A stretch of 64,000 nt of DNA, from the NCBI GenBank assembly GCA_963729625.1, contig CAVSOU010000008.1, positions 544,001-608,000 on the forward strand. The letters are read 5' to 3'. A program made the translations under genes and the position numbers. A model generated the notes under the pieces. It saw only the letters and a program-made list of their open reading frames with translations, was not told the DNA's origin and made no database searches. Shown in pieces: positions 24,579 through 35,708 of the stretch (position 1 is the stretch's first letter; each line of letters begins with the position of its first letter). The stretch comes from an uncultured bacterium (lineage in GTDB: Bacteria; Chloroflexota; UBA5177; JANWHV01).

Positions 24579-27500
24579 CTACGTCGATTCGGAGGCGTGT
24601 AGCGCCAGCACGTCGGTGATGATGCCGTTCAGAGACATCGTTTGGCCTTCCGCCCACCTGACGGCGAACATGTCATCAGCGCCGAGCAACTGTCGCACCC
24701 AAGCGACGTCGGCCGCGAATACCTTTTGCGAACTCGGCGGGAGCGGATGGCCGACGGCAGTGTACTCCGCCTCGACGGCACCAAGCAGATTCGCCGCCAG
24801 CGCCGGATTCCCTTCGCCTGCGATCATTAGTGCCCAGTTTTGTAGCACATCGGCCAGCGCCACCCGTTCGCCAAGGGTCCGGTATCCGTGCATGCTGAGG
24901 CGGAAGTGGGCGATCGCCTCCCGATAGTGTTCCTGCTCGCAGGCTATGCGACCCAACTCGTTGTGGACACCTGCACTCCCCGAGATATCGGCCTGTTCAT
25001 CGAACTGTGGTAGCACCGAATCGAGCAACGTCGCGGCACGCGGCAGGTCACCGGCCAGGCGATAGCAGACTGCCTGGTTGAAGAGCGTATAGCGGATCGG
25101 ACAGAACGCGTGGCGGTCATCCAGCGTCCGCCGCTGCCCCAGGCATTCCTCGTTGAGCGTGATGGCACGGGTGTAGTCGCCCTCCTCCTGAGCGACGAGG
25201 GCCAGGTTGTGCAGCGCTCTCACGATATTCGGCGTATCACTCTCGCGCCGGAATATCGCCAACGACTCTTCATAGAGTGCTGCTGCCTGCACCCGGTCTC
25301 CCTGAAACCTGGCGACGTTGCCCAGTCCGTTGAGGGCGTTAGCCACTTCGCCGCTATTGTGCGTGGCACGGCCAAGGGCGAGGCACTCTTCATGCACCGC
25401 ACGGGCCAGTTCGTGATCACCCTGGTTGATCGCGAAGTGGCCTAATCCTCGTAAGGCTCGCAGCCGCGCGACCGGAGCGCCGCCTTCGCGAGAAAGCACG
25501 GCCGAGAGCCAGGTGCGTCCCTCGATCCAATGCCCTCGCGCCGCCCAGAACCACCAGAGTGCTCCTGCCAGGCGGATACCCGCATGCACATCCTCGTCCT
25601 GCCGCACACACCACTCGAGCGCAGCCCGCAGATTGTCGTGCTCAATTTCCATGCGCTCGACCCAGGCGGGCTGAGGGGGACCGTGCGAAGCCGGCCACGC
25701 ACGTTCCGCAAACGCCAGGCACCAGCGCAGATGCCGATCCCGCGCCTGGGCCTCCTCTCCGTGCTCTCGAAGATGCTGGACTGCATAGTGGCGCACTGTC
25801 TCGAGCAGCCGGTAGCGGCACGACGTCTCTGGGTCGTCCTCGATCTGCACCAGGGACTTGCTCGCCAGCCTGGCAAGCAGGTCAGATACGCCGGCTTCCT
25901 CCAACGGGCTGTCCGAACAGACGGCTTCCACGGCGTCGAGCGTCCAACCACCTGCAAATACTGATAGTGTGCGGAACAGTGCCTGTTCGTCGTCGCTGAG
26001 CAGGTCGTAGCTCCAATCCATCACCTCACGGAGCGTCTGATGGCGAGGCAAGGCCGCCCGATTCCCGACCGTGAGCAATCGGAACCGATCGTGCAGCCGG
26101 GCGGCAAGGTCGCCGGGAGAGAGCTGTCCGAGACGAGCAGCCGCCAATTCTATGGCCAGGGGAATTCCGTCGAGTTGGGTGCAGATCTCCACGATGGCCC
26201 GCCAATTGTCGAGCGTCAAGGCAAAGTCAGGCCGCACCAGCCGCGCGCGCTCGACGAGGAGACGCGTCGCGGCGTGCCGGCCCACCTCCTGCAGCGAGAG
26301 CTCGCCTCGCCGGGCCCGTGGAGGGACGGCGAGAGACGGCAACCGCCACACCGTCTCGCCCAGCACACCTAGCGGTTCCCGGCTGGTGGCCAAGATCTGC
26401 GTGCTAGGGCACTCCCGTAAGATAGAGGCCACGAACGCTACGCTAGCGGCTATCACATGCTCGCAGTTGTCGAGGATCAGCAGCATCCGGCCCGACCGCA
26501 GAATGGAGATCAGCGTCGGCAGCGAAGACCGGTCCGTACCTGGATGCAAGCCGAGTGCGCCGGCCGTCTGGCAGGCGATAGGCTCAAGATCAACCTCCCT
26601 TTCAGGCGCCAGCACGGCCAGCTCCACCAACCACAGGCCATCGGGATACACACTCCGCAATTCATGGCCAAGCTCGATCGCCAGGCGCGTCTTTCCGCAG
26701 CCGCCCGCACCGGTCACGGTGAGCAGGCGGCACGCTTGGCCGGCCGGAGATGCCGCGCCACCGGAGAGTAGCCGGGCCAGCGTCGCCAGCTCTTGCTCGC
26801 GTCCGAGAAAGCTGGTCAGCGGCGTGGGCAAGTTGGAATGCTGCGCGGAGGCAGCGTGGCGGCTTGCCACCGCCGCCTGATAGTGCTCCTCGGTTTCGCT
26901 GTCCGGCGCCATGTCGAGATCGCGCCGCAGTGCGTCGGCCACCTGCTTGTAGGTACGGGCAGCCTCGGGAGCCCGCCCGGCCGCGACTTGTACGCGCATC
27001 AGGGATCGCGCCGCCGGCTCATTGCACGCATCGATGGCGAGGACTGCCCGCAGGCAGCGCGCCGCTTCACCCAGCACCCCATCCCGTTCGCGCAGATCGG
27101 CCAGGCGAAGCAAGAGCGCGAGGTACTGCTGGCGTAGCTCCTCCCTGCGCATGACCGCCCACTCATCGTACACGTCGTCCGGCAAATACTCTCCACCATA
27201 GAGCGCCAGTGCGGCCCGGCACGCAACAGCATCCCCGCCAGCCAAAGCGATGGCAGCAGCGCGCTCGAAGGCACGTGCATCCAGCCAGTCCTCAGGCGGC
27301 GTGTTCTCAGGTGCGGGGGCGAGCACCAGCAGGCCGCCCTCAAGGCGCACATACCCGAGCTCTCCCGTGCGCTGTCCCAATACCTTGCGGAGACGGTGAA
27401 CGGTCGTTCGCAGGTATGTGGCGGCCATGGCAGGCTCCTCCTCGGGCCTGAGCAACTCGGCCAGTTGTTCGCGGTGCCGCCGGTGCCGAGGCGCGCTCAG

Positions 27501-27866
27501 CAGGCATTTGAACAGCATTGTTGCCTGGCGGTGACGCCAGGTCTCCGCCGGCAAAGGTGTGCTACCACGCCAAACAGCAAAACCACCGAGCGTTCGCACC
27601 CGAAGCGGCGCGTACGTCTGGGCCGCCACCATCGCTTCAGGCAACTCGAGCGGCTCCGGCGTCGCCGCCGCCTCGGGTGGCAGGTGCTTGCCGATATAAC
27701 GCGAGCGCCGTCGCCCACCCTCGCGCCAGTAGGCATACCAGTAGGGACCGTGACCTGGAGAACCCAACACGCAGGTTGGGCACGCGAGCTTGTTGCAGCG
27801 TCGAAACTGCTGACTATACGTGACGCGTGTCGCCGCCGCCAACTGACCGGTAGCCATGCCGCGCAC
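24579..27866 (-). CDS. AfsR/SARP-like regulator: Cys/His Zn-ribbon (DUF6788-like) + BTAD + NB-ARC/STAND ATPase + TPR
   Basis: RRCNKLACPTC...GHGPYWYAYW; LRVRTLGGF, WLDARAFE, ALALYGGEYLPD (BTAD); TGAGGCGKTRLA, LILDNCEH, LDGIPLAIELAA; TPR tail. Confidence 0.88.
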   Translation of the reverse strand: MRGMATGQLAAATRVTYSQQFRRCNKLACPTCVLGSPGHGPYWYAYWREGGRRRSRYIGKHLPPEAAATPEPLELPEAMVAAQTYAPLRVRTLGGFAVWRGSTPLPAETWRHRQATMLFKCLLSAPRHRRHREQLAELLRPEEEPAMAATYLRTTVHRLRKVLGQRTGELGYVRLEGGLLVLAPAPENTPPEDWLDARAFERAAAIALAGGDAVACRAALALYGGEYLPDDVYDEWAVMRREELRQQYLALLLRLADLRERDGVLGEAARCLRAVLAIDACNEPAARSLMRVQVAAGRAPEAARTYKQVADALRRDLDMAPDSETEEHYQAAVASRHAASAQHSNLPTPLTSFLGREQELATLARLLSGGAASPAGQACRLLTVTGAGGCGKTRLAIELGHELRSVYPDGLWLVELAVLAPEREVDLEPIACQTAGALGLHPGTDRSSLPTLISILRSGRMLLILDNCEHVIAASVAFVASILRECPSTQILATSREPLGVLGETVWRLPSLAVPPRARRGELSLQEVGRHAATRLLVERARLVRPDFALTLDNWRAIVEICTQLDGIPLAIELAAARLGQLSPGDLAARLHDRFRLLTVGNRAALPRHQTLREVMDWSYDLLSDDEQALFRTLSVFAGGWTLDAVEAVCSDSPLEEAGVSDLLARLASKSLVQIEDDPETSCRYRLLETVRHYAVQHLREHGEEAQARDRHLRWCLAFAERAWPASHGPPQPAWVERMEIEHDNLRAALEWCVRQDEDVHAGIRLAGALWWFWAARGHWIEGRTWLSAVLSREGGAPVARLRALRGLGHFAINQGDHELARAVHEECLALGRATHNSGEVANALNGLGNVARFQGDRVQAAALYEESLAIFRRESDTPNIVRALHNLALVAQEEGDYTRAITLNEECLGQRRTLDDRHAFCPIRYTLFNQAVCYRLAGDLPRAATLLDSVLPQFDEQADISGSAGVHNELGRIACEQEHYREAIAHFRLSMHGYRTLGERVALADVLQNWALMIAGEGNPALAANLLGAVEAEYTAVGHPLPPSSQKVFAADVAWVRQLLGADDMFAVRWAEGQTMSLNGIITDVLALHASEST

Positions 27867-27925: not shown

Positions 27926-28014
27926 GCTACACAAGCGCGTTGGGTGGACACAAGATGACCAGAGGATGGCAGATCGTGGGCTGTAACGGATACGCACGAC
28001 CGCTTGTGTAAGCT
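27926..28014 (+). promoter_or_regulatory. conserved promoter element, copy B (upstream of the small ORF)
   Basis: GCTACACAAG-N10-GGACACAAG-N4-CCAGAGG-N2-GGC-N10-CTGTAAC-N20-GTAAGCT. Confidence 0.7.
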
Positions 28015-28081
28015 GTGCACATAAGCTACGCCAGCGGCTTCAGAGGCATACGGCAAACGGCCCGAGGGAAGATCGAAATCG

Positions 28082-28309
28082 ATGACGAGGTACGATGCCT
28101 ACGTTCTGCGGTTCTGGCAAAGCACGGGAAAGGATGGGCCACAGTGGAAGGGTAGGATAGAACACCTTGGGCGCGGCGAAAGCGTGCAGTTTGACAACCT
28201 GGAGGCCTTACTGCATCACATACGCACAATCGCCGGCGTAGAGCGTGGTCTGGGCAGCATGGACCGCGGTCCAGGACACGGAGAAGCCGGAAAGAGCATG
28301 GCGCCCTAG
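28082..28309 (+). CDS. small hypothetical protein (YVLRFW...WKGRIEH...GE...FDNLEALL)
   Basis: 75 aa with globular-looking composition, GAGGGA RBS-like sequence upstream, divergent from the STAND regulator. Confidence 0.7.
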   Translation: MTRYDAYVLRFWQSTGKDGPQWKGRIEHLGRGESVQFDNLEALLHHIRTIAGVERGLGSMDRGPGHGEAGKSMAP

Positions 28310-28506
28310 CCGTGCAGCGTCCGGGCGACATTGTCGGCAGTGTGATTCGGGAGATCGTCCTCGTGAAGACCAATCCTAGCTACGGGCCTGATGCCTGGCA
28401 TCCGGGCACGGGCACTGTCATCGGGACGGTCTGCACCAGCTAGATTCTGGCTGCGCGCCGGCCCCATCAGCACAAGTCACTCCCAATGTCTTCGCAGCAG
28501 CGACCA

Positions 28507-28542
28507 GCAAGACCTCCGGGACATCGTCGCCGGAGGTCTTGC
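28507..28542. terminator. hairpin downstream of the tandem RHH gene
   Basis: GCAAGACCTCCGG-N10-CCGGAGGTCTTGC, 13-bp perfect arms. Confidence 0.6.
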
Positions 28543-28577
28543 CCGTGCCGAAACAGCAGGAAGGGCCGCGCCCAGGA

Positions 28578-29024
28578 CTACCGCGCCTTCTTCCCCTGGC
28601 CATGCACGCCGTTGGCCCGCTGAAAGGCGAGGTCGTCATTCAGCCGGTAGTCGACGAGCGCTTTGATCAGCATCTGATTGATCGAACCCCGGCAGTTAAA
28701 CGCCTTGGTTCGCAGCCACTCGTACATCTCATCAGTCAGGTGAACGTTGAATTTCACGCTTCCGGCCGCGGCGCCGGTCGGCTTGAGCGCGAGAGGCGTC
28801 GTGACATCGGGCGACATCTCACGCAGGGCCCGGATTGCCGCGAGCACCATGCTGTTCATGCTGCGGCGATCGACGAATGCGCGATAGCGCAGCCACTCGT
28901 ACTGTGCTGCCGGCAGGCGACACTGCATGAATCGCGTTCCGTCCATGGCCGCCGGTGCTGCAACAACCTTTTGCCTATCTATCATCTGCAACACGTGCGA
29001 CGCCTCCTTGGTCATCCTCTTCAT
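28578..29024 (-). CDS. tandem ribbon-helix-helix (Arc-like) DNA-binding protein
   Basis: Two similar units: FMQCRLPAAQYEWLRYRAFVDRRSMNSMVLAAI and FNVHLTDEMYEWLRTKAFNCRGSINQMLIKAL. Confidence 0.7.
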   Translation of the reverse strand: MKRMTKEASHVLQMIDRQKVVAAPAAMDGTRFMQCRLPAAQYEWLRYRAFVDRRSMNSMVLAAIRALREMSPDVTTPLALKPTGAAAGSVKFNVHLTDEMYEWLRTKAFNCRGSINQMLIKALVDYRLNDDLAFQRANGVHGQGKKAR

Positions 29025-29254
29025 TTACCCAGGTAGCCCCCCGGCAACATCGGTCTGGACATCCCTACATTTCTTCCTATCGGCAGCAACTCGGCAAACC
29101 AATAGAGTGAACTTCAGGGCAGTATTGAGCAACGTGGCCAACTGGACTGCAGGGAGCGGGTTTGCTAAGATTGCCTGGATTGGGAGCCTCTTTAGCGAAG
29201 CCGCTACAGAAGCAGTCCACACGATCGACGACGATCATCTGGAGGTCCACGTTC

Positions 29255-30532
29255 ATGACGATGACCCCGGTCGAAAAGGCCACCGTGCTCGATCAGAGCT
29301 CCGTGCTCGAGCTTGCCCTGCGGCAGTTCGAGGCCGCAGCCGACCATCTGCAGCTTGAGACACGCTTCCGGCGCATCCTGCGCCGGTCGCGACGCGAGTT
29401 GACGGTGACATTTCCGGTGCGCATGCGCGACGATTCATTCGCGGTGTTCACTGGCTATCGCGTCCACCACAACATCGTGCGCGGACCGGCGTCCGGCGGC
29501 ATTCGCTATCACCCAGATCTCAATATCAACGCCATCCGCGCTCTGGCGCTCTGGTCTACGTGGCGCTCGGCACTGTTGCGCATACCATTCGGCGGAGCCT
29601 ACGGAGGCGTCGTATGCGACCCGACCTCGATGACCGAAGCGGAGCGCGAGAATCTGACACGCCGCTTTACCACTGAGATCTCCATCCTGCTTGGGCCTGA
29701 TCGCGACATCCCGTCGCCGGATCGCTCGACTGACGCACAGGTAATGGCCTGGATGATGGACACCTACAGCATGCACCGCGGCTATTCCGTGCCCGCTGTA
29801 GTGGCGGGGAAGCCGGTGGCGATCGGCGGATCGCGAGGCTGGGCCGCCTCCAGCGGCCTGGGAACAGCCGTGCTCTGCCGCGAGCTCGCCCGGCTCCGCG
29901 GCCTGAACGTGGAGAACACGCGTATCGCGCTGCAGGGCACCGGGCCCATAGGCGCATCCGCGGCGCATGTGCTGCATGAATGGGGCGCGCGGATCGTGGC
30001 GATCGGTGATGGCCAACAGGGCGTTTTCCAGAACAACGGACTGGACGTTCCGGCTGTTCTCCGGTACATCGCCGAGCACGGCTCCCTGCAGGGCTGCCCC
30101 CTCGGTTCGCCCGTGGACAGCCCGACCCTCGCGCCGCTGCCGTGCGACATTTTGGTCCTGAGCGGCTTCGAGCGCATCGACGAGCAGTCGGCGAAGGCCA
30201 TGCAGGCCATGATGGTGGTGGAAGGAGCCTATGGCACGATCGCGCCGGAGATCGACGCGTTGCTCGAGGCGCGGGGCGTCATGGTACTGCCCGATATTCT
30301 CGGCGGATCGGGCGGAACCGCGGCGTCGTACTTCGAATGGGTCCAGGATATTCAAGAGACGTTCTGGAGCGAGAGCCAGATCAATGTCCGGATCGAGGAG
30401 ATGCTGCTGCGCGCGTTTGAAGACACCTATGCGCTGCATCAGCGCGACGGTATCTCACTTCGCCTGGCCGCCCATTGTCTGGCCGTCGGGCGGGTGGCCG
30501 ATGCGCATCGGATTCGGGGACTGTACCCGTAG
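29255..30532 (+). CDS. Glu/Leu/Phe/Val dehydrogenase homologue with degenerate active site
   Basis: FTGYRVHHN, GGIRYHP, MAWMMDTYS, GKPVAIGGS, SYFEWVQ retained; catalytic lysines replaced; GGAGG RBS. Confidence 0.85.
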   Translation: MTMTPVEKATVLDQSSVLELALRQFEAAADHLQLETRFRRILRRSRRELTVTFPVRMRDDSFAVFTGYRVHHNIVRGPASGGIRYHPDLNINAIRALALWSTWRSALLRIPFGGAYGGVVCDPTSMTEAERENLTRRFTTEISILLGPDRDIPSPDRSTDAQVMAWMMDTYSMHRGYSVPAVVAGKPVAIGGSRGWAASSGLGTAVLCRELARLRGLNVENTRIALQGTGPIGASAAHVLHEWGARIVAIGDGQQGVFQNNGLDVPAVLRYIAEHGSLQGCPLGSPVDSPTLAPLPCDILVLSGFERIDEQSAKAMQAMMVVEGAYGTIAPEIDALLEARGVMVLPDILGGSGGTAASYFEWVQDIQETFWSESQINVRIEEMLLRAFEDTYALHQRDGISLRLAAHCLAVGRVADAHRIRGLYP

Positions 30533-30534
30533 TC

Positions 30535-30801
30535 ATGGGCATCGAGGACGCGGGCCGGTGGGTGCCGCTGACCTACTACTTGCGCCTGAAACGCGGCCAG
30601 CATCCGGCTGTCGAGGTGACGTTTCGGCAGATCGAGGCGGTACTCGGGGATGCACTGCCGAAGCCGGCGCGCAAGCAGCCGGAGTGGTGGCGCAACGACG
30701 CCGCCACTCCGCAGGGTCATGCCTGGCTCGACGCTGGCTGGACGGTAAGCGCGGTGGATTTGTCGAATGAGCGGGTGACGTTCGTGCCTTCGGGTGCTTG
30801 A
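30535..30801 (+). CDS. small conserved protein, DUF7662-like
   Basis: PL..YL...VEVTFRQIEAVLG..LP..A...EWWRN...QGHAWLDAGW.V..VDL...VTF pattern; starts 2 nt after the GDH-like stop. Confidence 0.7.
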   Translation: MGIEDAGRWVPLTYYLRLKRGQHPAVEVTFRQIEAVLGDALPKPARKQPEWWRNDAATPQGHAWLDAGWTVSAVDLSNERVTFVPSGA

Positions 30802-30926
30802 GCGCCTTCTGAATCAAGATCCTTACACAAGCGCTTCGAGGCTGTTGCGCAAGCAACGATCGTGTTTCCCAGCATCGCTGCTTTGCGCGTGTGCGACGGC
30901 GATGAGGATGGGGACGTGGCGCCGGT

Positions 30927-31289
30927 CTATCTGTTGCCGGAGGTCTGGCCGGGCAGGTCAAAGACGATGAGAAGTGCCTGGTCGATGTCGGCGATGGCCG
31001 TCGCATCGAGCATGCCAAGTCTGCGCAGGAGTCTGCCGTGGCCAAGCACCCGAACCTGCTCGCCCATGGCGACAGAATCCACGACCAGGCCCCCATCTGG
31101 GGCATGCAGCACCGTTTGGCTCGGGTAGATGCGTTGTCCATGGTAGGTCGTGCAGGGAACTGCCAGCACGATACGGCTGTTTGCATTGATCGCGTTGCGA
31201 GAGACGATAACGACCGGCCGGCCGGCTGCTTGTTCGGACCGTTCGGTCGGATCGAGCCGTGCACTGTACATCTCGCCGCGCAAGATCAT
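30927..31289 (-). CDS. mazF: MazF/PemK-family toxin
   Basis: RGEMY.A.LDPT..SEQ...RPVVIVSRNAIN, VPCTT, DSVAMGEQVR. Confidence 0.85.
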   Translation of the reverse strand: MILRGEMYSARLDPTERSEQAAGRPVVIVSRNAINANSRIVLAVPCTTYHGQRIYPSQTVLHAPDGGLVVDSVAMGEQVRVLGHGRLLRRLGMLDATAIADIDQALLIVFDLPGQTSGNR

Positions 31290-31558
31290 CGCTGCTCAGC
31301 CACCTGAAACTCCTCCCAGCTCGATCGGTCCAGGCCCTTTTCCAGCATCTCGGCTTCGGCGAGGTAGTCTGCATCGCTCGCCATGTCTGCGAATGCAGCG
31401 TCGATCGCTGCCCGGCGGTGCTCGGCCAGAAACCGGCGCAGCGCTTCCGCAAGCAGGTCGTTGCGCGATCTGGCCATACCCGCGTCGACCGCCCGGTCGG
31501 CGGCGTCGAGCAACTCCTTGGGCAGGGCGACCGTGGTGCGCGTGACTTCCGCGTTCAT
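31286..31558 (-). CDS. RHH (CopG-like) antitoxin
   Basis: RTTVALPKELLDAAD...SRNDLLAEALRRFL, acidic C-terminus; ATGA overlap with the toxin. Confidence 0.8.
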   Translation of the reverse strand: MNAEVTRTTVALPKELLDAADRAVDAGMARSRNDLLAEALRRFLAEHRRAAIDAAFADMASDADYLAEAEMLEKGLDRSSWEEFQVAEQR

Positions 31559-31578
31559 CTCTGTTGAATCCTATCCAG

Positions 31579-31610
31579 GCATCGAGATCGATGCTTTGAA
31601 TGATAGCATA
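31579..31610 (-). promoter_or_regulatory. TA operon operator and -10 box
   Basis: Palindrome GCATCGA-GA-TCGATGC (31579-31594) just downstream of minus-strand TATGCT (31610-31605). Confidence 0.55.
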
Positions 31611-31952
31611 GTCGGTGCACCCTAGAGAAAGAATCTCGCCCGGTGTGAGCGGTGGGCGTTCATGTTCGTTTAAGAGTCGCTAGACTATCATGCATGTGTA
31701 GAACGTTGCGGAACGACACGATCGGATTCCCTCAGTTCGATCGGCCGTTCTTGCCGGCAGCGCGCGATCCGAGGCAATTCGTGCTTCGCCCAGTCGCCGG
31801 CCGCGACAAACAGGCAAGCGTGACCGATACAAGGGGATCTCGCGCTACAGGCCTGGCACAAGCGAACCCTGCCGCGGTGCTATCGCGTAACCAGCGTTCG
31901 GAGGCATCGCGCATCCCGATCGATCTCGGGGTGAGCGATGCAGGTGGGAAGG

Positions 31953-34900
31953 ATGGCAATGAAAAGTAAAGTCGCGCGCGTCATACATCTCGGGCTGCTC
32001 GCCGGCCTCGTACTCGGCTTAATCGTGCCGGCGGCAAACGGCACATCCCAGGCATCAGCCGCCTCGGCCGGCGCCGGTGTCTCCGACCGTTCGACGGTTG
32101 TCGACAGCGCCACCGGGCGGATGTATATCGTCTATGGCAATGTGCTGCACCTGGTGTCCACCCCTCAGGTGTTGACAGTGCTGGGCATCGCGGCATCGTC
32201 CGCCGTGAAGCTCGACAGCACGCAGTTGGCGCAGCTGCAGGAAGGCGCACCGCTGACGCTGCGGGAGACCAACGGACAGACCGATCCGCTGTCGCCGGTG
32301 GCGTCAGGCACGGCGTCGCTGACGCTCAGCACGGCGAGCGTGCCTGCCGGCGAGCCGTTCTCGGTGCAAGGGGCGGGATTCACGCCCTCAGAGCCGGTTC
32401 AGCTCGTCTTCGACTTTGGGCAGGTAAGCAGCACGCTGCACGCGGATGCCACGGGCGTCTTCAGCGGGACGTTCGTCATGCCTGTCTCGGTAACGCCGGC
32501 AATCATCCGCGTCTTTGCCTTTGGCGGGCTGAGCAAGATCATGGAAATCGAGCCGATTGCCGTACTCGAGAAAGAAGGTCCGCCGCACCTCACGGCAAGC
32601 GCTGCCAAGCTCTACCCCGGGGACGGCGTCGGCGTGGCGGGAACCGGTTTTCAGCCGTACGAAACCGTCTCCATCTACTTCACCGCGGGCGGCACTTCCG
32701 TGGAGACGGCCGCGGACGTGCGTGGCGCATTCACGGCGCAAACTGTGACCGCGCCGGCGACGATCTCGCCGGGCAGTCACAGCATCACGGCGAGCGGGAA
32801 GACCAGCCATCACTCCACGAAGGTCTATGTCACGATTGTCGCGCGGCCGATCGTGAAAGCAAGCCTGGTCGTAAGCCCGGCCGAGACGCGTGCCGGGCAG
32901 CCGATTGTGCTGAGCGGCGCTGGTTTCCTGGCCAATGAACTGGTGCACGTGCGGATTGGCGCGGCGCAGGCCTTCGACCTCCGTGCCGACGGCAACGGCG
33001 CGTTTCAGAATGTGCGGGTTTCGCTGAGCCAAAGTCTGGCGGCGGGAAAGGCCACCGTCAGCGCGACAGGCACGTCATCGCAGCGCAGCAGCATCGCCAC
33101 CCTGTCCATCGTGGCGCCGCTGCAGACGAACGCGATTCCGGCTGACGGCTCGCTCATCCGCGATCAGTCGACCGGCAGAGTCTACTTCATCTGGGGAAGC
33201 GTGCGCCACTGGATCGACAGCCCGGCTGTGCTTCAGACTCTCGGCTTCAGCAGCGCGAGTCCGGTGGATCTGCCTTCCGCGGCAGTGACTGCGATCAAGA
33301 ACGGCGCCACGTTAGGGCTGACGCTTGTCGACGGTCTCGTGTTCCCGCTTGCGCCCGTCAGCAACAGCGGTGCATCGCTCCGGCTATCGGAGCCATCCGA
33401 CACGCCCGGGAAAGTGTTTACCATTACCGGCTCGCGTTTCGCGCACTTCGAGGCCGTGCAGATCGTGTTCGCGGGAGCGGCGCAGGTCGTCGCTACCGAC
33501 GGCAGCGGCAACCTCACAGCGTCGCTCGTCGTCCCGGGCTCCGCGCAGCCAAACAGCGTGTTGCAGGTGATCGTGTTGGGCCAGGCCAGTCACGTATTCG
33601 CTATGGAACCGTTCAACGTGATCAACGCGCCGGCCACGGCGAGCCTCATCTCGCAGACGCCGAGCGTGCTCCAGGGCGCGCACGCAATCGTGAGCGGCAG
33701 TGGCTTTTTGCCAAACGAACAGGTGAACCTGTTCCTGGGCCAGACCGCATCGGCTGCGCCGGCGCAGGCGGATCAAAACGGTATCTTCTCGTCCGGCGCG
33801 CTGGTAGTGCCGCCATCACTGAGCGTGGGTTCGCACAGCCTCATGGCCTACGGCCTGTCCAGCAAGCGATTTGCTCAGGGCACCATTACTATCGTGAAAC
33901 CGTCGCTGAGCCCTCCTACGCTCTCTACGGATCGTACCAGCGTCAACCCGGGCAGCCTCGTGCAGGTGCGCGGCTACAACTTCGCGGCGCACGAGACCGT
34001 CCACGTGAGCTTCGGCTCGACACTGGTCCTCTCGTTGCAGAGCGGATCCAGCGGCCAGTTCGGTCCCGTGGGCATCACTATTCCCACCACCACGCCCGCC
34101 GGCAGCTACACACTCAGCGGCACTGGCGGCACATCTAATTCGACCGCGACGGTGACGCTGACGATCGTGGCCTACAACCCATCTATCAGCATCTCTCCGG
34201 TGTATGCGATTCCCGGCACGAGAATCGCCGTGGGCGGGAACGGCTACGCCGCGGGCGAAATCGTGACGCTGGCCCTGAACGGGCAGGCTCTGGCGACAAG
34301 CCCCGGCCAGATCAAGACCGGCCCAGCCGGCGCCTTCTCCGCGAGCTTCATCGTGCCGCCCACGGCGCTTGCCGGGGCGAACACCGTGGCGGCGTCGGGC
34401 GCCACGAGCCGAGCCTCGGCCACGATGGGTCTTGCCGTGAGTCTGCCGGTGCAGTCCACGTGGTATTTCGCGGGCGGGAACACGGCACCCGGATTCGACA
34501 CGGAGATCGCGCTGGTCAACCCAAATGGCGCGCCTACCAACGTCACCTTCTCGTTCATGTTTACGAGCGGGAGCCCCATGCCGTATTCGATGGTCGTGGG
34601 CGCCGATAGCCGGGCCACGGTCAACGTGGGCTCCATCGTGGGAGCGGGCCGTGCCGTCTTCACCATGCTGACCGCCGATCGCAAGATTGGCGCCTCGGAA
34701 ACGGTCTTCCGAAACGGCCAGGACTTCAGCTCGACGAGCGGCGCCAGCGCACCGTTGCGCACGTGGTATCTCGCAGAGGGCTATACGGGCCTCAGTTTCC
34801 ATGAGTACATCCGCATCTTCAATCCAGGCATCGGCCAGGCGCATGTCGACTTGCGCCTGCTGCCGTTCAATGGCCGTCCCGCCACCTCGCTCATCGAGCT

Positions 34901-35708
34901 GCTAGCGGCCCAGACGGGGACCATCGTCGACGTCAACGCGATCGAGTCTGGTCTCTCGCTGTCGGCGATCGTCAGCAGCGACCAGCCTGTCGTCGTGGAG
35001 CGGCTGATGACCTTCGGGCCTGGCGGCTACGGCGCCACCGAGCAGGTTGGCGCGTCGGCGCCATCCAGCACCTGGCTGTTTGCCGAAGGCTCTACAGTGA
35101 ACAACTTCGAGACGTATTACACGATTCTCAACCCGAGCTCATCGCAGCTCGCCGCGGTCACGGCGACGTTCTTTGACCAGGCCGGCAACGTGTTGGCGAA
35201 CACGACAGTGCTGATCAATCCGCTGCGACGCGGCAACATCAAGGTCAACGATCTGCTGCGCTCGAGCGGTATCGCCACGATCCTCACCTCAAACATCCCG
35301 GTGGTGGCAGAGCGGCCCCTCTACTTCGGATCGCCGAATTCGTCCACCGCTGGGTCGGGGGGCAGTGACGTATTCGGACGCAACGGCGGCGGCGTGAGTT
35401 GGCTTTTCCCCGAGGGGAATACCAGCGCAGGGTACACGGAGTTTCTTCTCCTCCAGAATCCCAGCGCGCGGCCTGCGCCGGTGACCGTCCGCTTCTTCGA
35501 AACCAACGGCCAGACCGTCGACTACGGCGTGACGCTGCCCGGGAAGAGCCGGACCACCGTCGACGTGCTGCGGAATGTTCCCACGCTGCCGCCAGGATTG
35601 CACGGATCGATCGTGCAGTCGACGAACGGCGTGCCGATCATCGCGGAACAGAGCATCTATAGCGACAACTTCACAAAAGGTGATGGCGAAGCTGGAATCT
35701 CACAATAG
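31953..35708 (+). CDS. large secreted/surface protein with Ig-like repeats and four C-terminal W(Y/L)xxEG-type repeats
   Basis: Signal peptide; repeated G.GF...E.V...ADxxGxF modules; WYFAGG, WYLAEG, WLFAEG, WLFPEG units each followed by NP. Confidence 0.8.
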   Translation: MAMKSKVARVIHLGLLAGLVLGLIVPAANGTSQASAASAGAGVSDRSTVVDSATGRMYIVYGNVLHLVSTPQVLTVLGIAASSAVKLDSTQLAQLQEGAPLTLRETNGQTDPLSPVASGTASLTLSTASVPAGEPFSVQGAGFTPSEPVQLVFDFGQVSSTLHADATGVFSGTFVMPVSVTPAIIRVFAFGGLSKIMEIEPIAVLEKEGPPHLTASAAKLYPGDGVGVAGTGFQPYETVSIYFTAGGTSVETAADVRGAFTAQTVTAPATISPGSHSITASGKTSHHSTKVYVTIVARPIVKASLVVSPAETRAGQPIVLSGAGFLANELVHVRIGAAQAFDLRADGNGAFQNVRVSLSQSLAAGKATVSATGTSSQRSSIATLSIVAPLQTNAIPADGSLIRDQSTGRVYFIWGSVRHWIDSPAVLQTLGFSSASPVDLPSAAVTAIKNGATLGLTLVDGLVFPLAPVSNSGASLRLSEPSDTPGKVFTITGSRFAHFEAVQIVFAGAAQVVATDGSGNLTASLVVPGSAQPNSVLQVIVLGQASHVFAMEPFNVINAPATASLISQTPSVLQGAHAIVSGSGFLPNEQVNLFLGQTASAAPAQADQNGIFSSGALVVPPSLSVGSHSLMAYGLSSKRFAQGTITIVKPSLSPPTLSTDRTSVNPGSLVQVRGYNFAAHETVHVSFGSTLVLSLQSGSSGQFGPVGITIPTTTPAGSYTLSGTGGTSNSTATVTLTIVAYNPSISISPVYAIPGTRIAVGGNGYAAGEIVTLALNGQALATSPGQIKTGPAGAFSASFIVPPTALAGANTVAASGATSRASATMGLAVSLPVQSTWYFAGGNTAPGFDTEIALVNPNGAPTNVTFSFMFTSGSPMPYSMVVGADSRATVNVGSIVGAGRAVFTMLTADRKIGASETVFRNGQDFSSTSGASAPLRTWYLAEGYTGLSFHEYIRIFNPGIGQAHVDLRLLPFNGRPATSLIELLAAQTGTIVDVNAIESGLSLSAIVSSDQPVVVERLMTFGPGGYGATEQVGASAPSSTWLFAEGSTVNNFETYYTILNPSSSQLAAVTATFFDQAGNVLANTTVLINPLRRGNIKVNDLLRSSGIATILTSNIPVVAERPLYFGSPNSSTAGSGGSDVFGRNGGGVSWLFPEGNTSAGYTEFLLLQNPSARPAPVTVRFFETNGQTVDYGVTLPGKSRTTVDVLRNVPTLPPGLHGSIVQSTNGVPIIAEQSIYSDNFTKGDGEAGISQ

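Follow-up and report, generated by a model that had tools for sequence, protein, structure and literature searches.

A glutamate dehydrogenase paralogue without its three pocket lysines, a possible ligand sensor, in a conserved three-gene unit of one Chloroflexota genus

Inactive and moonlighting relatives of metabolic dehydrogenases

Eukaryotes offer well-documented examples of metabolic enzyme look-alikes that have lost activity and serve as sensors. Among bacteria, we know of only a few such cases, for example GdhA and the alanine-dehydrogenase-like, NAD+-sensing accessory protein ADLP of Thermus. In PMC9570180 and bioRxiv 10.1101/2025.10.31.685773, GdhA is described as an inactive regulatory subunit and GdhB as the catalytic subunit of Thermus glutamate dehydrogenase (GDH). 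A preliminary description of the DNA analyzed here had invoked a non-catalytic regulatory subunit in Thermus, in agreement with both sources. The present analysis concerns a GDH-like gene in a 64,000-nucleotide stretch of DNA from an uncultured Chloroflexota bacterium, the whole of which is referred to as the window. Its product resembles Thermus GdhA (PDB 3aoe) in being a GDH homologue that is predicted to be non-active and may serve in regulation, and in keeping the residues aligned with the leucine allosteric site. The two systems differ in arrangement, as GdhA and GdhB are encoded by neighbouring genes and assemble into one hetero-hexamer, whereas the window gene has no adjacent gdh. In sequence comparison, GdhB (3aoe_A, aligned end to end, E 3e-112) is a closer match to the window protein than GdhA is (3aoe_E, E 1e-88). 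The comparison with Thermus holds less well than the preliminary description implied: the catalytic neighbour is absent and the conserved partners are two putative DNA-binding proteins.

The closest analogue for the proposed working of the window protein is ADLP from T. thermophilus, in which, according to bioRxiv 10.1101/2025.10.31.685773, the catalytic lysine is replaced, NAD(H) binding is kept and a CoA transferase is regulated by contact. ADLP belongs, however, to the alanine dehydrogenase fold family, has a CoA transferase as its partner instead of small DNA-binding-type proteins, and has a tested function, whereas that of the window protein is a proposal. Control of a transcription factor by GDH-family proteins is exemplified by RocG and GudB of B. 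subtilis, 'trigger enzymes' that inhibit the regulator GltC (PMC6794564). These are active, moonlighting enzymes, and GltC is a LysR-type protein encoded elsewhere, in contrast to the putative DNA-binding partners in the window, whose genes adjoin the GDH-like gene. The canonical short hexameric GDHs (Thermotoga maritima, 1b26/2tmg, and this genome's own paralogues L001 and L002) share with the window protein its length, both Pfam domains and about 45–50% identity, but 16 conserved columns, all in the cleft, and position K89 differ, and the glutamate pocket of the window protein is left without any lysine.

Scaffold and pocket of the GDH-like protein

Translation of the GDH-like ORF yields 425 residues with no stop, and the 425-codon frame is open in all five genomes of the genus. 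The protein belongs to the ELFV (Glu/Leu/Phe/Val) dehydrogenase superfamily, as both Pfam domains were matched over their full length above curated cut-offs (PF02812, E 1e-45, 154.9 bits against 25.3; PF00208, E 6e-46, 157.5 bits against 23.4). It also aligns end to end with T. maritima GDH (1b26/1b3b, E 1e-116 to 7e-117), in keeping with the full-length GDH homologue and intact reading frame of the preliminary description. NCBIfam equivalog scores were 397 bits against 620 and 389 bits against 750, thresholds that the canonical paralogues of the genome also fail to reach (520–529 bits). An alternative in-frame ATG at 29261, two codons downstream, corresponds to the MTP start of the orthologues. 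AlphaFold2 modelling from a 21-row clade alignment gave a mean pLDDT of 66, with the NAD domain above 90 and domain I below 50, the latter attributed to the shallow alignment. In their source records, the clade sequences are annotated 'glutamate dehydrogenase'.

Substitutions were judged against solved GDH chains and 201 canonical family members. By this standard, the six replacements quoted in the preliminary description were all borne out: GPAKGG to GPASGG, MTWK to STWR, GG[AG]KGG to GGAYGG, GFGNVG to GTGPIG, EGANG to EGAYG and ANAGGV to GGSGGT. Further fixed changes, which it had not listed, are PAPDVNTN to PSPDRSTD, GSxGR to GSxGW, EATG to (A/S)SG and PAALE to LSGFE. Pocket positions are given in C. 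symbiosum numbering (K89, K113, K125, D165, R205, N373 and Ser380), and their roles are taken to be those described for C. symbiosum GDH and for bovine GDH. K125 in GG[AG]KGG is thus presumed to be the catalytic lysine and K89, K113, R205 and N373 to be ligands of the substrate carboxylates, and D165, equivalent to D156 in the GDH-like protein, is presumed to be the catalytic aspartate position. A statement of these residue roles was not found in our literature search, which included passages of PMC12364357 and PMC12301742.

At the six positions K89/K113/K125/D165/R205/N373, canonical KKKDRN is present in 201 of 266 aligned family members, whereas the 22 sequences of the clade read ARYDWY (18), SRYDWY (2), CRYDWY (1) or ARFDWY (1). 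All three pocket lysines are replaced in every clade sequence (K89 by A, S or C, K113 by R and K125 by Y), as are the pocket arginine R205 (by W) and asparagine N373 (by Y). The catalytic-lysine position corresponds to Tyr116 of the window protein; it is Tyr in 21/22 members and Phe in one, P0015. The sharing of the substitutions among orthologues, a point raised in the preliminary description, extends to 22/22 sequences with an overall divergence of up to about 36%, and such fixation indicates that they are not due to chance. With the three lysines, the γ-carboxylate arginine and the asparagine all gone, it is highly improbable that the protein still works as a glutamate dehydrogenase.

Other functional positions are kept. 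D156 and S358, the latter equivalent to Ser380, are invariant in the clade, as are the glycines of GxGxxG (G228, G230 and G233) and the acidic NAD-ribose residue D252 after the second strand, and the Asn of the motif is changed to Pro (N231P). The cofactor motif that had been called replaced is therefore altered in its letters (GFGNVG to GTGPIG) but not in kind, and dinucleotide binding is not obviously lost. R137, D169, R421, Y424 and P425 are likewise invariant and align with the residues named in PMC9570180 for the leucine site of Thermus GDH, an allosteric site between subunits; conserved in ordinary GDHs too, they fail to single out a GdhA-type subunit. Across the alignment, 104 columns were conserved in both the clade (n = 21) and the canonical set (n = 201), with 88 identical and 16 different. 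The 16 differing columns all fall in cleft motifs (101, 104, 116, 154, 196, 200, 231, 293, 302–304, 326, 350–352 and 357), and their invariance within the clade argues for a new, selected pocket that could bind or catalyse. In the GDH-like clade, these comparisons indicate a retained scaffold around a pocket that was remodelled and has since been held constant.

The three-gene unit, its distribution and its candidate regulatory DNA

Gene order was read in five genomes of one genus. A divergent ribbon-helix-helix (RHH) gene, the GDH-like gene and a DUF7662 gene form a conserved three-gene unit (Table 1), found in this order in 5/5 genomes with varying outer flanks. The GDH-like and DUF7662 genes are 2, 2, 5 and 5 nt apart in four genomes; in the fifth (G001), they are separated by about 1.1 kb containing an ORF on the opposite strand. 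Purifying selection was detected on all three genes. For the GDH-like gene, ω was 0.059 (dS 0.39) and 0.097 (dS 0.79) in the two unsaturated genome pairs and 0.11–0.17 in the remaining eight; the canonical paralogue, at 0.060, is about equal to the unsaturated pairs. The dN/dS comparison among orthologues suggested in the preliminary description thus gave an overall range of 0.06–0.17. Values for the RHH gene were 0.04–0.07 in close pairs and those for the DUF7662 gene 0.14–0.17. Synonymous sites are saturated between most genome pairs.

Table 1 Features of the three-gene unit and its flanking DNA (positions in the window)
Feature	Position	Strand	Basis or remark
Single-chain tandem Arc-like ribbon-helix-helix protein, 148 aa	28578..29024	-	Pfam Arc, internal repeat
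CGATCGACGACGATCA, in candidate regulatory DNA of the unit	within upstream region 29025-29254		
Promoter-like element: TGGACT, 17 nt, TAAGAT	29143..29171	+	alignment of five upstream regions
Conserved 5'-leader motif CGATCGACGAYGATCA, candidate operator	29222..29237	+	nearly invariant in 5/5 upstream regions
GGAGG	29241-29245	+	after leader motif, 9 nt before ATG of GDH-like gene
GDH-family paralogue without three pocket lysines, 425 aa	29255..30532	+	translation, Pfam, alignments, selection
DUF7662 (PF24698) protein, 88 aa	30535..30801	+	starts 2 nt past GDH-like stop
Terminator-like hairpin, T-rich tail	30843..30868	+	42 nt past DUF7662 stop; consensus scan

The GDH-like orthologue is present in 5/5 genomes of the genus and in 0/396 other sampled Chloroflexota. 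The source genome holds three ELFV genes, two canonical (C11:458 kb and C8:687.7 kb) and the pseudo-GDH (C8:573.3 kb). All eight of its PPDK_N (dikinase-like) matches lie far from these three genes. Canonical gdh genes thus occur elsewhere in the genome, as the preliminary description had proposed to check, and none is adjacent, as it had stated, the nearest lying about 113 kb from the GDH-like gene. Canonical gdh genes are also present in all five genomes. Among the matches listed for contigs of relatives, no clade member was seen, the best genome-contig (50% identity) and metagenome-contig (49%) matches being canonical GDHs; no RNA sequencing run carrying the sequence was among the matches listed, and DNA runs contributed small shares only. 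Lysine-less copies are common in the wider family, where 22/145 cluster representatives examined are without the catalytic lysine. A common origin of three lysine-less groups was considered and rejected as unsupported, as FastTree support was 0.79 for the clade with group x and 0.45 for the clade with groups x and b, and the grouping may reflect long-branch attraction. Our literature search found nothing on this lysine-less clade as a pseudoenzyme or as an inactive or paralogous GDH.

The tandem RHH neighbour of the preliminary description was confirmed. Repeat 1 scored 22.1 bits with Pfam Arc (cut-off 20.4), and repeats 1 and 2 share 38% identity over 40 aa (E 2e-8). An Arc match was obtained for 4/5 orthologues, and a profile comparison with Mnt gave E 0.044. 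The gene stands beside the GDH-like gene in 5/5 genomes and its product is a putative repressor of the unit. At the 29 loci examined with other DUF7662 genes nearby, tblastn gave no match to the RHH protein.

The second neighbour, previously called DUF7662-like, scored 47 bits against a Pfam cut-off of 26, is the sole copy in the genome and had atlas matches exclusively to DUF7662 clusters; no paper on DUF7662 was found in the literature. Its AlphaFold2 model (pLDDT 86, element order H-S-H-H-S-S) looks winged-helix-like, with the best structural matches to CtsR (Z 5.3, r.m.s.d. 2.6, 66 aligned), RepE (5.2), Pi (4.8) and CooA (4.6), although Z values of about 5 lie in a common range, and a Foldseek search with the model returned nothing at E ≤ 0.001. 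Winged helices double as protein-binding modules. Complex prediction for the GDH-like and DUF7662 proteins gave a score of 0.00 and a mark of 0.32, which speaks neither for nor against a contact. Directly downstream, the window also contains a MazF/RHH pair.

Within the candidate regulatory DNA, the block GTTTGCTAnGATnGCC of the promoter-like element is conserved in 5/5 genomes; the element is put forward by inference only, because a simple sigma-70 consensus scan of 28000-31700 called no promoter. The leader motif is nearly invariant despite synonymous sites that are saturated between most pairs. It occurs once in the window and is not significant by count alone, because at least one match was obtained in 18/100 shuffles. 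The downstream hairpin is likely to mark the end of a two-gene transcript, although the terminator call is weak, because three sites were found against 1.9 expected in shuffles.

A possible ligand-sensing role and its alternatives

Strong selection, a rebuilt pocket and two constant DNA-binding-type neighbours point towards a protein that would sense a small molecule, its original chemistry having been dropped. We tentatively favour, as possible though short of probable, a 'trigger' pseudoenzyme that senses a ligand and is coupled to partners that bind DNA. In such a mechanism, the GDH-like protein, a member of the short hexameric GDH family, would fold, probably as an oligomer, and would have lost the ability to deaminate glutamate. 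Its ligand would be NAD(P)(H), a small carboxylate of probably hydrophobic or aromatic character, or both, and the bound state would be relayed by contact to the DUF7662 protein encoded on the same transcript, to the tandem RHH repressor, or to both. DUF7662 and RHH, both presumed to bind DNA, would then control transcription of the unit itself and perhaps that of further genes. Fixation of the substitutions, the low ω, the shared gene order with gaps of 2–5 nt in 4/5 genomes, the GltC and ADLP precedents and the winged-helix topology of the DUF7662 model speak for this reading, as does the placing of DUF7662 before PIN genes and beside MazF at other loci, typical of DNA-binding antitoxins. 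The modest Z values of that model, the interruption in G001, the non-distinctive leader motif and the uncalled promoter weigh against it. Of the pseudoenzyme acting as sensor or scaffold in the preliminary description, the part that stands is a protein that is probably not a working GDH and is maintained by selection; the sensor or scaffold part is less secure, as the new invariant pocket residues suit a novel active site no less than a sensor.

The pocket is also what a re-purposed oxidoreductase would present, one carrying out NAD(P)H-dependent chemistry on another substrate, for example a hydrophobic or aromatic 2-oxo acid, an imine or a ketone, with Arg104 holding the carboxylate and Tyr116 or Asp156 as the proton donor. 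The invariance of the replaced cleft residues, the restriction of the conserved-but-different columns to the cleft, the retention of D252, of the GxGxxG glycines and of the catalytic-position Asp, and a constraint on the GDH-like gene equal to that of a canonical enzyme all speak for it. However, the natural Phe in place of Tyr116 in P0015 argues weakly against a hydroxyl as the catalytic group, the nicotinamide-side motifs are altered as well (N231P, PAA to LSG and ANAGG to GGSGG), and the constant partners are two small DNA-binding-type proteins rather than pathway enzymes or transporters. To our knowledge, catalysis throughout the Glu/Leu/Phe/Val dehydrogenase family depends on the catalytic lysine. 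We therefore regard new chemistry as a somewhat unlikely explanation. Assembly into mixed hexamers with one of the two canonical GDHs, whose activity would be tuned, for example by leucine, appears clearly unlikely. Such a subunit would follow the inactive GdhA that regulates GdhB in PMC9570180 and bioRxiv 10.1101/2025.10.31.685773; the 88 shared columns together with R137, D169, R421, Y424 and P425 would allow for assembly and for the binding of an allosteric ligand, and canonical gdh genes are carried by each of the five genomes. Yet the nearest canonical gdh is about 113 kb away, the conserved neighbours are RHH and DUF7662, and a rebuilt, frozen substrate pocket would be needless for a mere assembly partner.

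The company kept by DUF7662 elsewhere in Chloroflexota raises the thought of a toxin–antitoxin- or defence-like unit, with a GDH-fold effector acting, for example, on NAD or an essential metabolite, neutralization by DUF7662 and repression by RHH. Among 27 other loci, five have DUF7662 immediately before a co-directional PIN gene, which is the place of DNA-binding antitoxins, and one has it as an HTH fusion next to MazF; in other Chloroflexota, it precedes methylase–HNH genes at two loci and occurs in CBS–DUF7662–DUF4268 proteins at four, one of them adjoining RloB. The MazF/RHH pair downstream in the window fits the same picture. Against this, no model of PADLOC (2023 library) matched the three unit proteins at E ≤ 0.01, and the unit is passed down in a single genus at a constant location, with housekeeping-like divergence and no patchy distribution. 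We know of no GDH-fold effector. Such a unit strikes us as improbable, and equally so its stress-switch version, in which an NAD-binding, GDH-derived hexamer with an aromatic-lined pocket would be checked by a winged-helix DUF7662 protein under RHH auto-repression. A decaying duplicate (an incipient pseudogene) or chance similarity has only the loss of catalytic residues in its favour, and is refuted by the ω range of 0.06–0.17 and the substitutions fixed in 22/22 sequences, with the frame open in 5/5 genomes; its probability is negligible.

The pocket of this GDH-like protein appears to have been cleanly rebuilt and frozen, which is more than merely disabled. Because a GDH-fold protein is here tied to a pair of small proteins of DNA-binding type, the concept of a specialised 'trigger' pseudoenzyme can be tested directly with a few proteins and 230 bp of DNA, and the uncharacterised DUF7662 family acquires a probable fold along with a characteristic genomic role. 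Were the toxin–antitoxin-like reading true, the unit would be the first with a metabolic-dehydrogenase fold as its active arm. For the family at large, the 22/145 representatives without a catalytic lysine imply that automatic 'glutamate dehydrogenase' labels overstate the capacity for nitrogen metabolism in many metagenome-derived genomes.

Remodeling of the glutamate dehydrogenase pocket

The glutamate dehydrogenase (GDH)-like gene lies in a window (C8:544001–608000) of a 5.4-Mb genome (G000; ~64% GC, 87% complete) from a small Chloroflexota class with 21 species genomes in GTDB. In agreement with the preliminary description of a full-length and intact frame, it was translated without a stop into 425 residues containing both complete Glu/Leu/Phe/Val (ELFV) dehydrogenase domains by Pfam profiles, and its orthologues start at the equivalent MTP. 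The protein aligned end to end with the short hexameric GDHs of T. maritima (1b26/1b3b, E ~1e-116) and Thermus (3aoe_A, E 3e-112). The six motif changes initially listed were all present relative to solved chains and canonical relatives. The accompanying claim that the cofactor motif is replaced holds for its letters (for example, N231P) but not for its signature, as the GxGxxG glycines and the acidic D252 were invariant.

To collect relatives, 5.8 billion proteins were screened with a word index; 8,000 candidates were scored and the best 120 listed. Among these 120 matches were the query and 22 sequences at 63–90% identity (P0002–P0022 and the fragment P0025); beyond this clade, identity fell to at most 54% and the catalytic lysine was kept in all 97 remaining matches. 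Six positions that we take to be those of the GDH pocket (K89, K113, K125, D165, R205 and N373 in C. symbiosum numbering) read ARYDWY in 18 of the 22 clade sequences long enough for alignment, SRYDWY in two, and CRYDWY and ARFDWY in one each. The canonical KKKDRN occupied the same positions in 201 of 266 aligned family members. Comparison of columns at least 90% conserved in the clade (21 rows) with those at least 80% conserved in the canonical set (201 rows) gave 104 columns conserved in both, of which 88 held the same residue. The 16 that differed (canonical to clade: M101S, K104R, K116Y, A154S, R196W, T200S, N231P, L293A, P302L, A303S, A304G, N326Y, A350G, N351G, A352S and V357A) were all within motifs lining the substrate and nicotinamide cleft. 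Judged from these alignments, the scaffold of the GDH-like protein is retained and its pocket rebuilt. D156 (the catalytic-Asp position) and Ser358 were invariant in the clade. Also kept were R137, D169, R421, Y424 and P425, the counterparts of residues that PMC9570180 assigns to the leucine allosteric site of Thermus GDH; ordinary GDHs conserve them as well.

Pairwise Nei–Gojobori analysis of the five genomic orthologues, a comparison proposed in the preliminary description, gave omega values of 0.059–0.168 over 10 pairs, including 0.059 (dS 0.39) and 0.097 (dS 0.79) for the two pairs with dS < 1. The canonical paralogue gave 0.060 for the pair from this genome and G004. Together with substitutions fixed in 22 of 22 clade sequences, this range rules out a decaying duplicate; neither neutral decay nor orthologues without the substitutions were found. 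Whole-genome searches recovered an orthologue at 67–87% identity in all five genomes of the genus, but none in the 16 class members outside it (best match ≤48%; the tally includes the unpublished genome G018). A phylum-wide sample of 401 genomes gave five matches at E ≤1e-145 and no orthologue in the other 396. A FastTree phylogeny of 65 sequences recovered the clade as monophyletic (support 1.0), with a long stem branch (0.49 substitutions per site).

GDH diversity was surveyed using the best 150 of the 50%-identity cluster representatives (P0121–P0270) from a library of 1.84 billion proteins. Among the 145 readable at the lysine column, 22 had Q, M, S, A, W, G, C, R or H in the correct PFGGxXGG context, often with K89 and K113 also changed; none of these 22 had Tyr at the catalytic position or the combination found in the clade. 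Lysine-less GDH homologues are not rare, and the 22 represent a large, diverse and seemingly unstudied set. The pocket remodeling of the GDH-like protein is unusually thorough. Two more lysine-less groups occur in the same class: group 'x' of the same genus (L106, G002:C227; L108, G003:C123; L111, G001:C278; L202, G004:C16), with GGSAGA and I/L at K89, and group 'b' of family f2 (L104, L107, L109 and L110), with GGAAGG and K89 and K113 kept. Both are flanked by unrelated housekeeping genes (hemC, mutS/mutL, PBP, 2-hydroxyacid dehydrogenase and AMP-binding enzyme). A group 'x' copy was not seen in the 87% complete assembly studied here. Nothing on the clade was found in the papers searched, and sources label close relatives of the GDH-like protein plainly as glutamate dehydrogenase.

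A conserved unit with RHH and DUF7662 genes

ORFs around the five orthologues were compared across the five related genomes of the genus. The immediate neighbors were of the same kind in all five, and their assignment as DUF7662 and tandem RHH genes was borne out by Pfam and internal repeat. The Arc-like domain of the RHH protein scored above the Pfam cut-off and was matched by four of five orthologues; its halves align to each other (E 2e-8), and it is a single-chain tandem RHH. The GDH-like stop and DUF7662 start are separated by 2 nt (G000 and G004) or 5 nt (G002 and G003), and by ~1.1 kb in G001, the only non-contiguous case. Purifying selection was evident in close pairs for DUF7662 (omega 0.14–0.17) and the RHH core (0.04–0.07). 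Although synonymous sites are saturated, every one of the five upstream regions retains a promoter-like TGGACT-17-TA(A/C)GAT block and a CGATCGACGAYGATCA motif directly 5′ of the ribosome-binding site; neither is statistically distinctive alone. A consensus scan placed a terminator-like hairpin 3′ of the DUF7662 gene.

The outer flanks vary: on the upstream side, four genomes encode an ABC ATPase together with an FtsX-type permease, and the window a BTAD + AAA + TPR regulator. The 75-aa ORF beside this regulator matched nothing in Pfam or PADLOC, lacks a counterpart at the four related loci and may not be a gene. Directly after the DUF7662 gene in the window is a MazF/PemK (E 1e-19) and CopG-type RHH pair, the CopG-type match (19.4 bits) being slightly below the cut-off of 20.5; the pair is absent at the same place in G004, where other genes, including an aldo-keto reductase, are found.

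Features of the GDH-like locus and its surroundings
Feature	Position	Strand	Remarks
BTAD + AAA + TPR regulator, 1,095 aa, AfsR/SARP-like architecture	24579..27866	-	window; replaces ABC ATPase/FtsX pair
75-aa ORF	28082..28309	+	between BTAD regulator and RHH gene
Tandem RHH protein, 148 aa	28578..29024	-	upstream, opposite strand, 5/5 genomes
Candidate ribosome-binding site GGAGG	9 nt 5′ of GDH-like ATG	+	from sequence
GDH-like gene	29255..30532	+	
DUF7662 gene	30535..30801	+	downstream, same strand as GDH-like gene
MazF/PemK toxin gene	30927..31289	-	4-nt overlap with next
CopG-type RHH antitoxin gene	31286..31558	-	
Secreted-looking repeat protein, 1,256 aa, DUF5719 region	31938..35708	+	72% identity downstream of unit in G004
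254-aa ORF, no Pfam family	L117 990..1754 (G001)	+	opposite-strand ORF in 1.1-kb spacer

DUF7662 is present once in this genome and in 58 of 401 sampled Chloroflexota; no mention of the name was found in the literature searched. An AlphaFold2 model from a 37-row alignment was confident (pLDDT 86), with the order helix, strand, helix, helix, helix, strand, strand. Foldseek returned no match at E ≤0.001. The best exhaustive structural matches were winged-helix DNA-binding domains (CtsR, Z 5.3; RepE, 5.2; Pi, 4.8; CooA, 4.6), followed by Stn1, Z-alpha, PurR, GntR and ScpB. Z values of ~5 are in a range common for this aligner, and the modeled fold is best described as winged-helix-like, a consistent theme among matches but not proven.

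At 27 other loci, 91 of 127 greedy ORFs were annotated, the 36 omitted being short or at locus edges. DUF7662 was found directly 5′ of a same-strand PIN gene (L216, L220, L224, L230 and L231), fused to HTH_3 with PemK/MazF as its neighbor (L212), 5′ of methylase-HNH genes (L210 and L215), after MBL/RMMBL genes (L203 and L209), beside an enolase-family gene (L227) and within ~500–590-aa proteins with a C-terminal DUF4268 (L206, L213, L219 and L223). CBS domains occur in the same protein as DUF7662-DUF4268 or in the ORF just upstream (L213), and the L219 protein adjoins an RloB-like gene. The remaining loci had no informative neighbor, and the tandem RHH protein was not found at any of these loci. 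Judged from these neighbors, the domain typically stands where an antitoxin or regulator that binds DNA would be encoded, and the five PIN loci suggest a new antitoxin DNA-binding domain.

Possible roles of the GDH-like protein

The rebuilt and frozen pocket, the retained dinucleotide signature and inter-subunit site, and two small DNA-binding-type partners with no metabolic neighbors lead us to favor, tentatively and at somewhat less than even chances, a ligand-sensing pseudoenzyme that acts on transcription. The main rival, a re-purposed oxidoreductase, fits the invariant new pocket equally well, and we regard it as rather unlikely; the natural Tyr-to-Phe variant P0015 at the former catalytic position weakly favors binding over acid–base catalysis. 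A Thermus-like subunit of canonical GDHs would have partners in the genome. Among its three ELFV genes, L001 (C11:458 kb) and L002 (C8:687.7 kb) contain every canonical motif, so that the search for a catalytic gdh elsewhere yielded two copies. The nearest is ~113 kb away, consistent with the original observation that none adjoins the GDH-like gene, and such a subunit is improbable. Less probable still is a toxin–antitoxin-like unit, for all the toxin genes beside DUF7662 at other loci.

As a ligand-sensing pseudoenzyme, the GDH-like protein would influence transcription by contacting other proteins, and would thus be a 'trigger enzyme' devoted to that task. There are precedents: B. subtilis GDHs act on a regulator by inhibiting GltC (PMC6794564); Thermus GdhA is an inactive GDH homologue used as a regulatory subunit; and a Thermus alanine-dehydrogenase-like protein, with its catalytic lysine replaced, is an NAD(H)-sensing regulator of CoA transferase (both bioRxiv 10.1101/2025.10.31.685773). 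Pseudoenzyme paralogues of amino-acid dehydrogenases are a known kind, and what is new here is the partner set.
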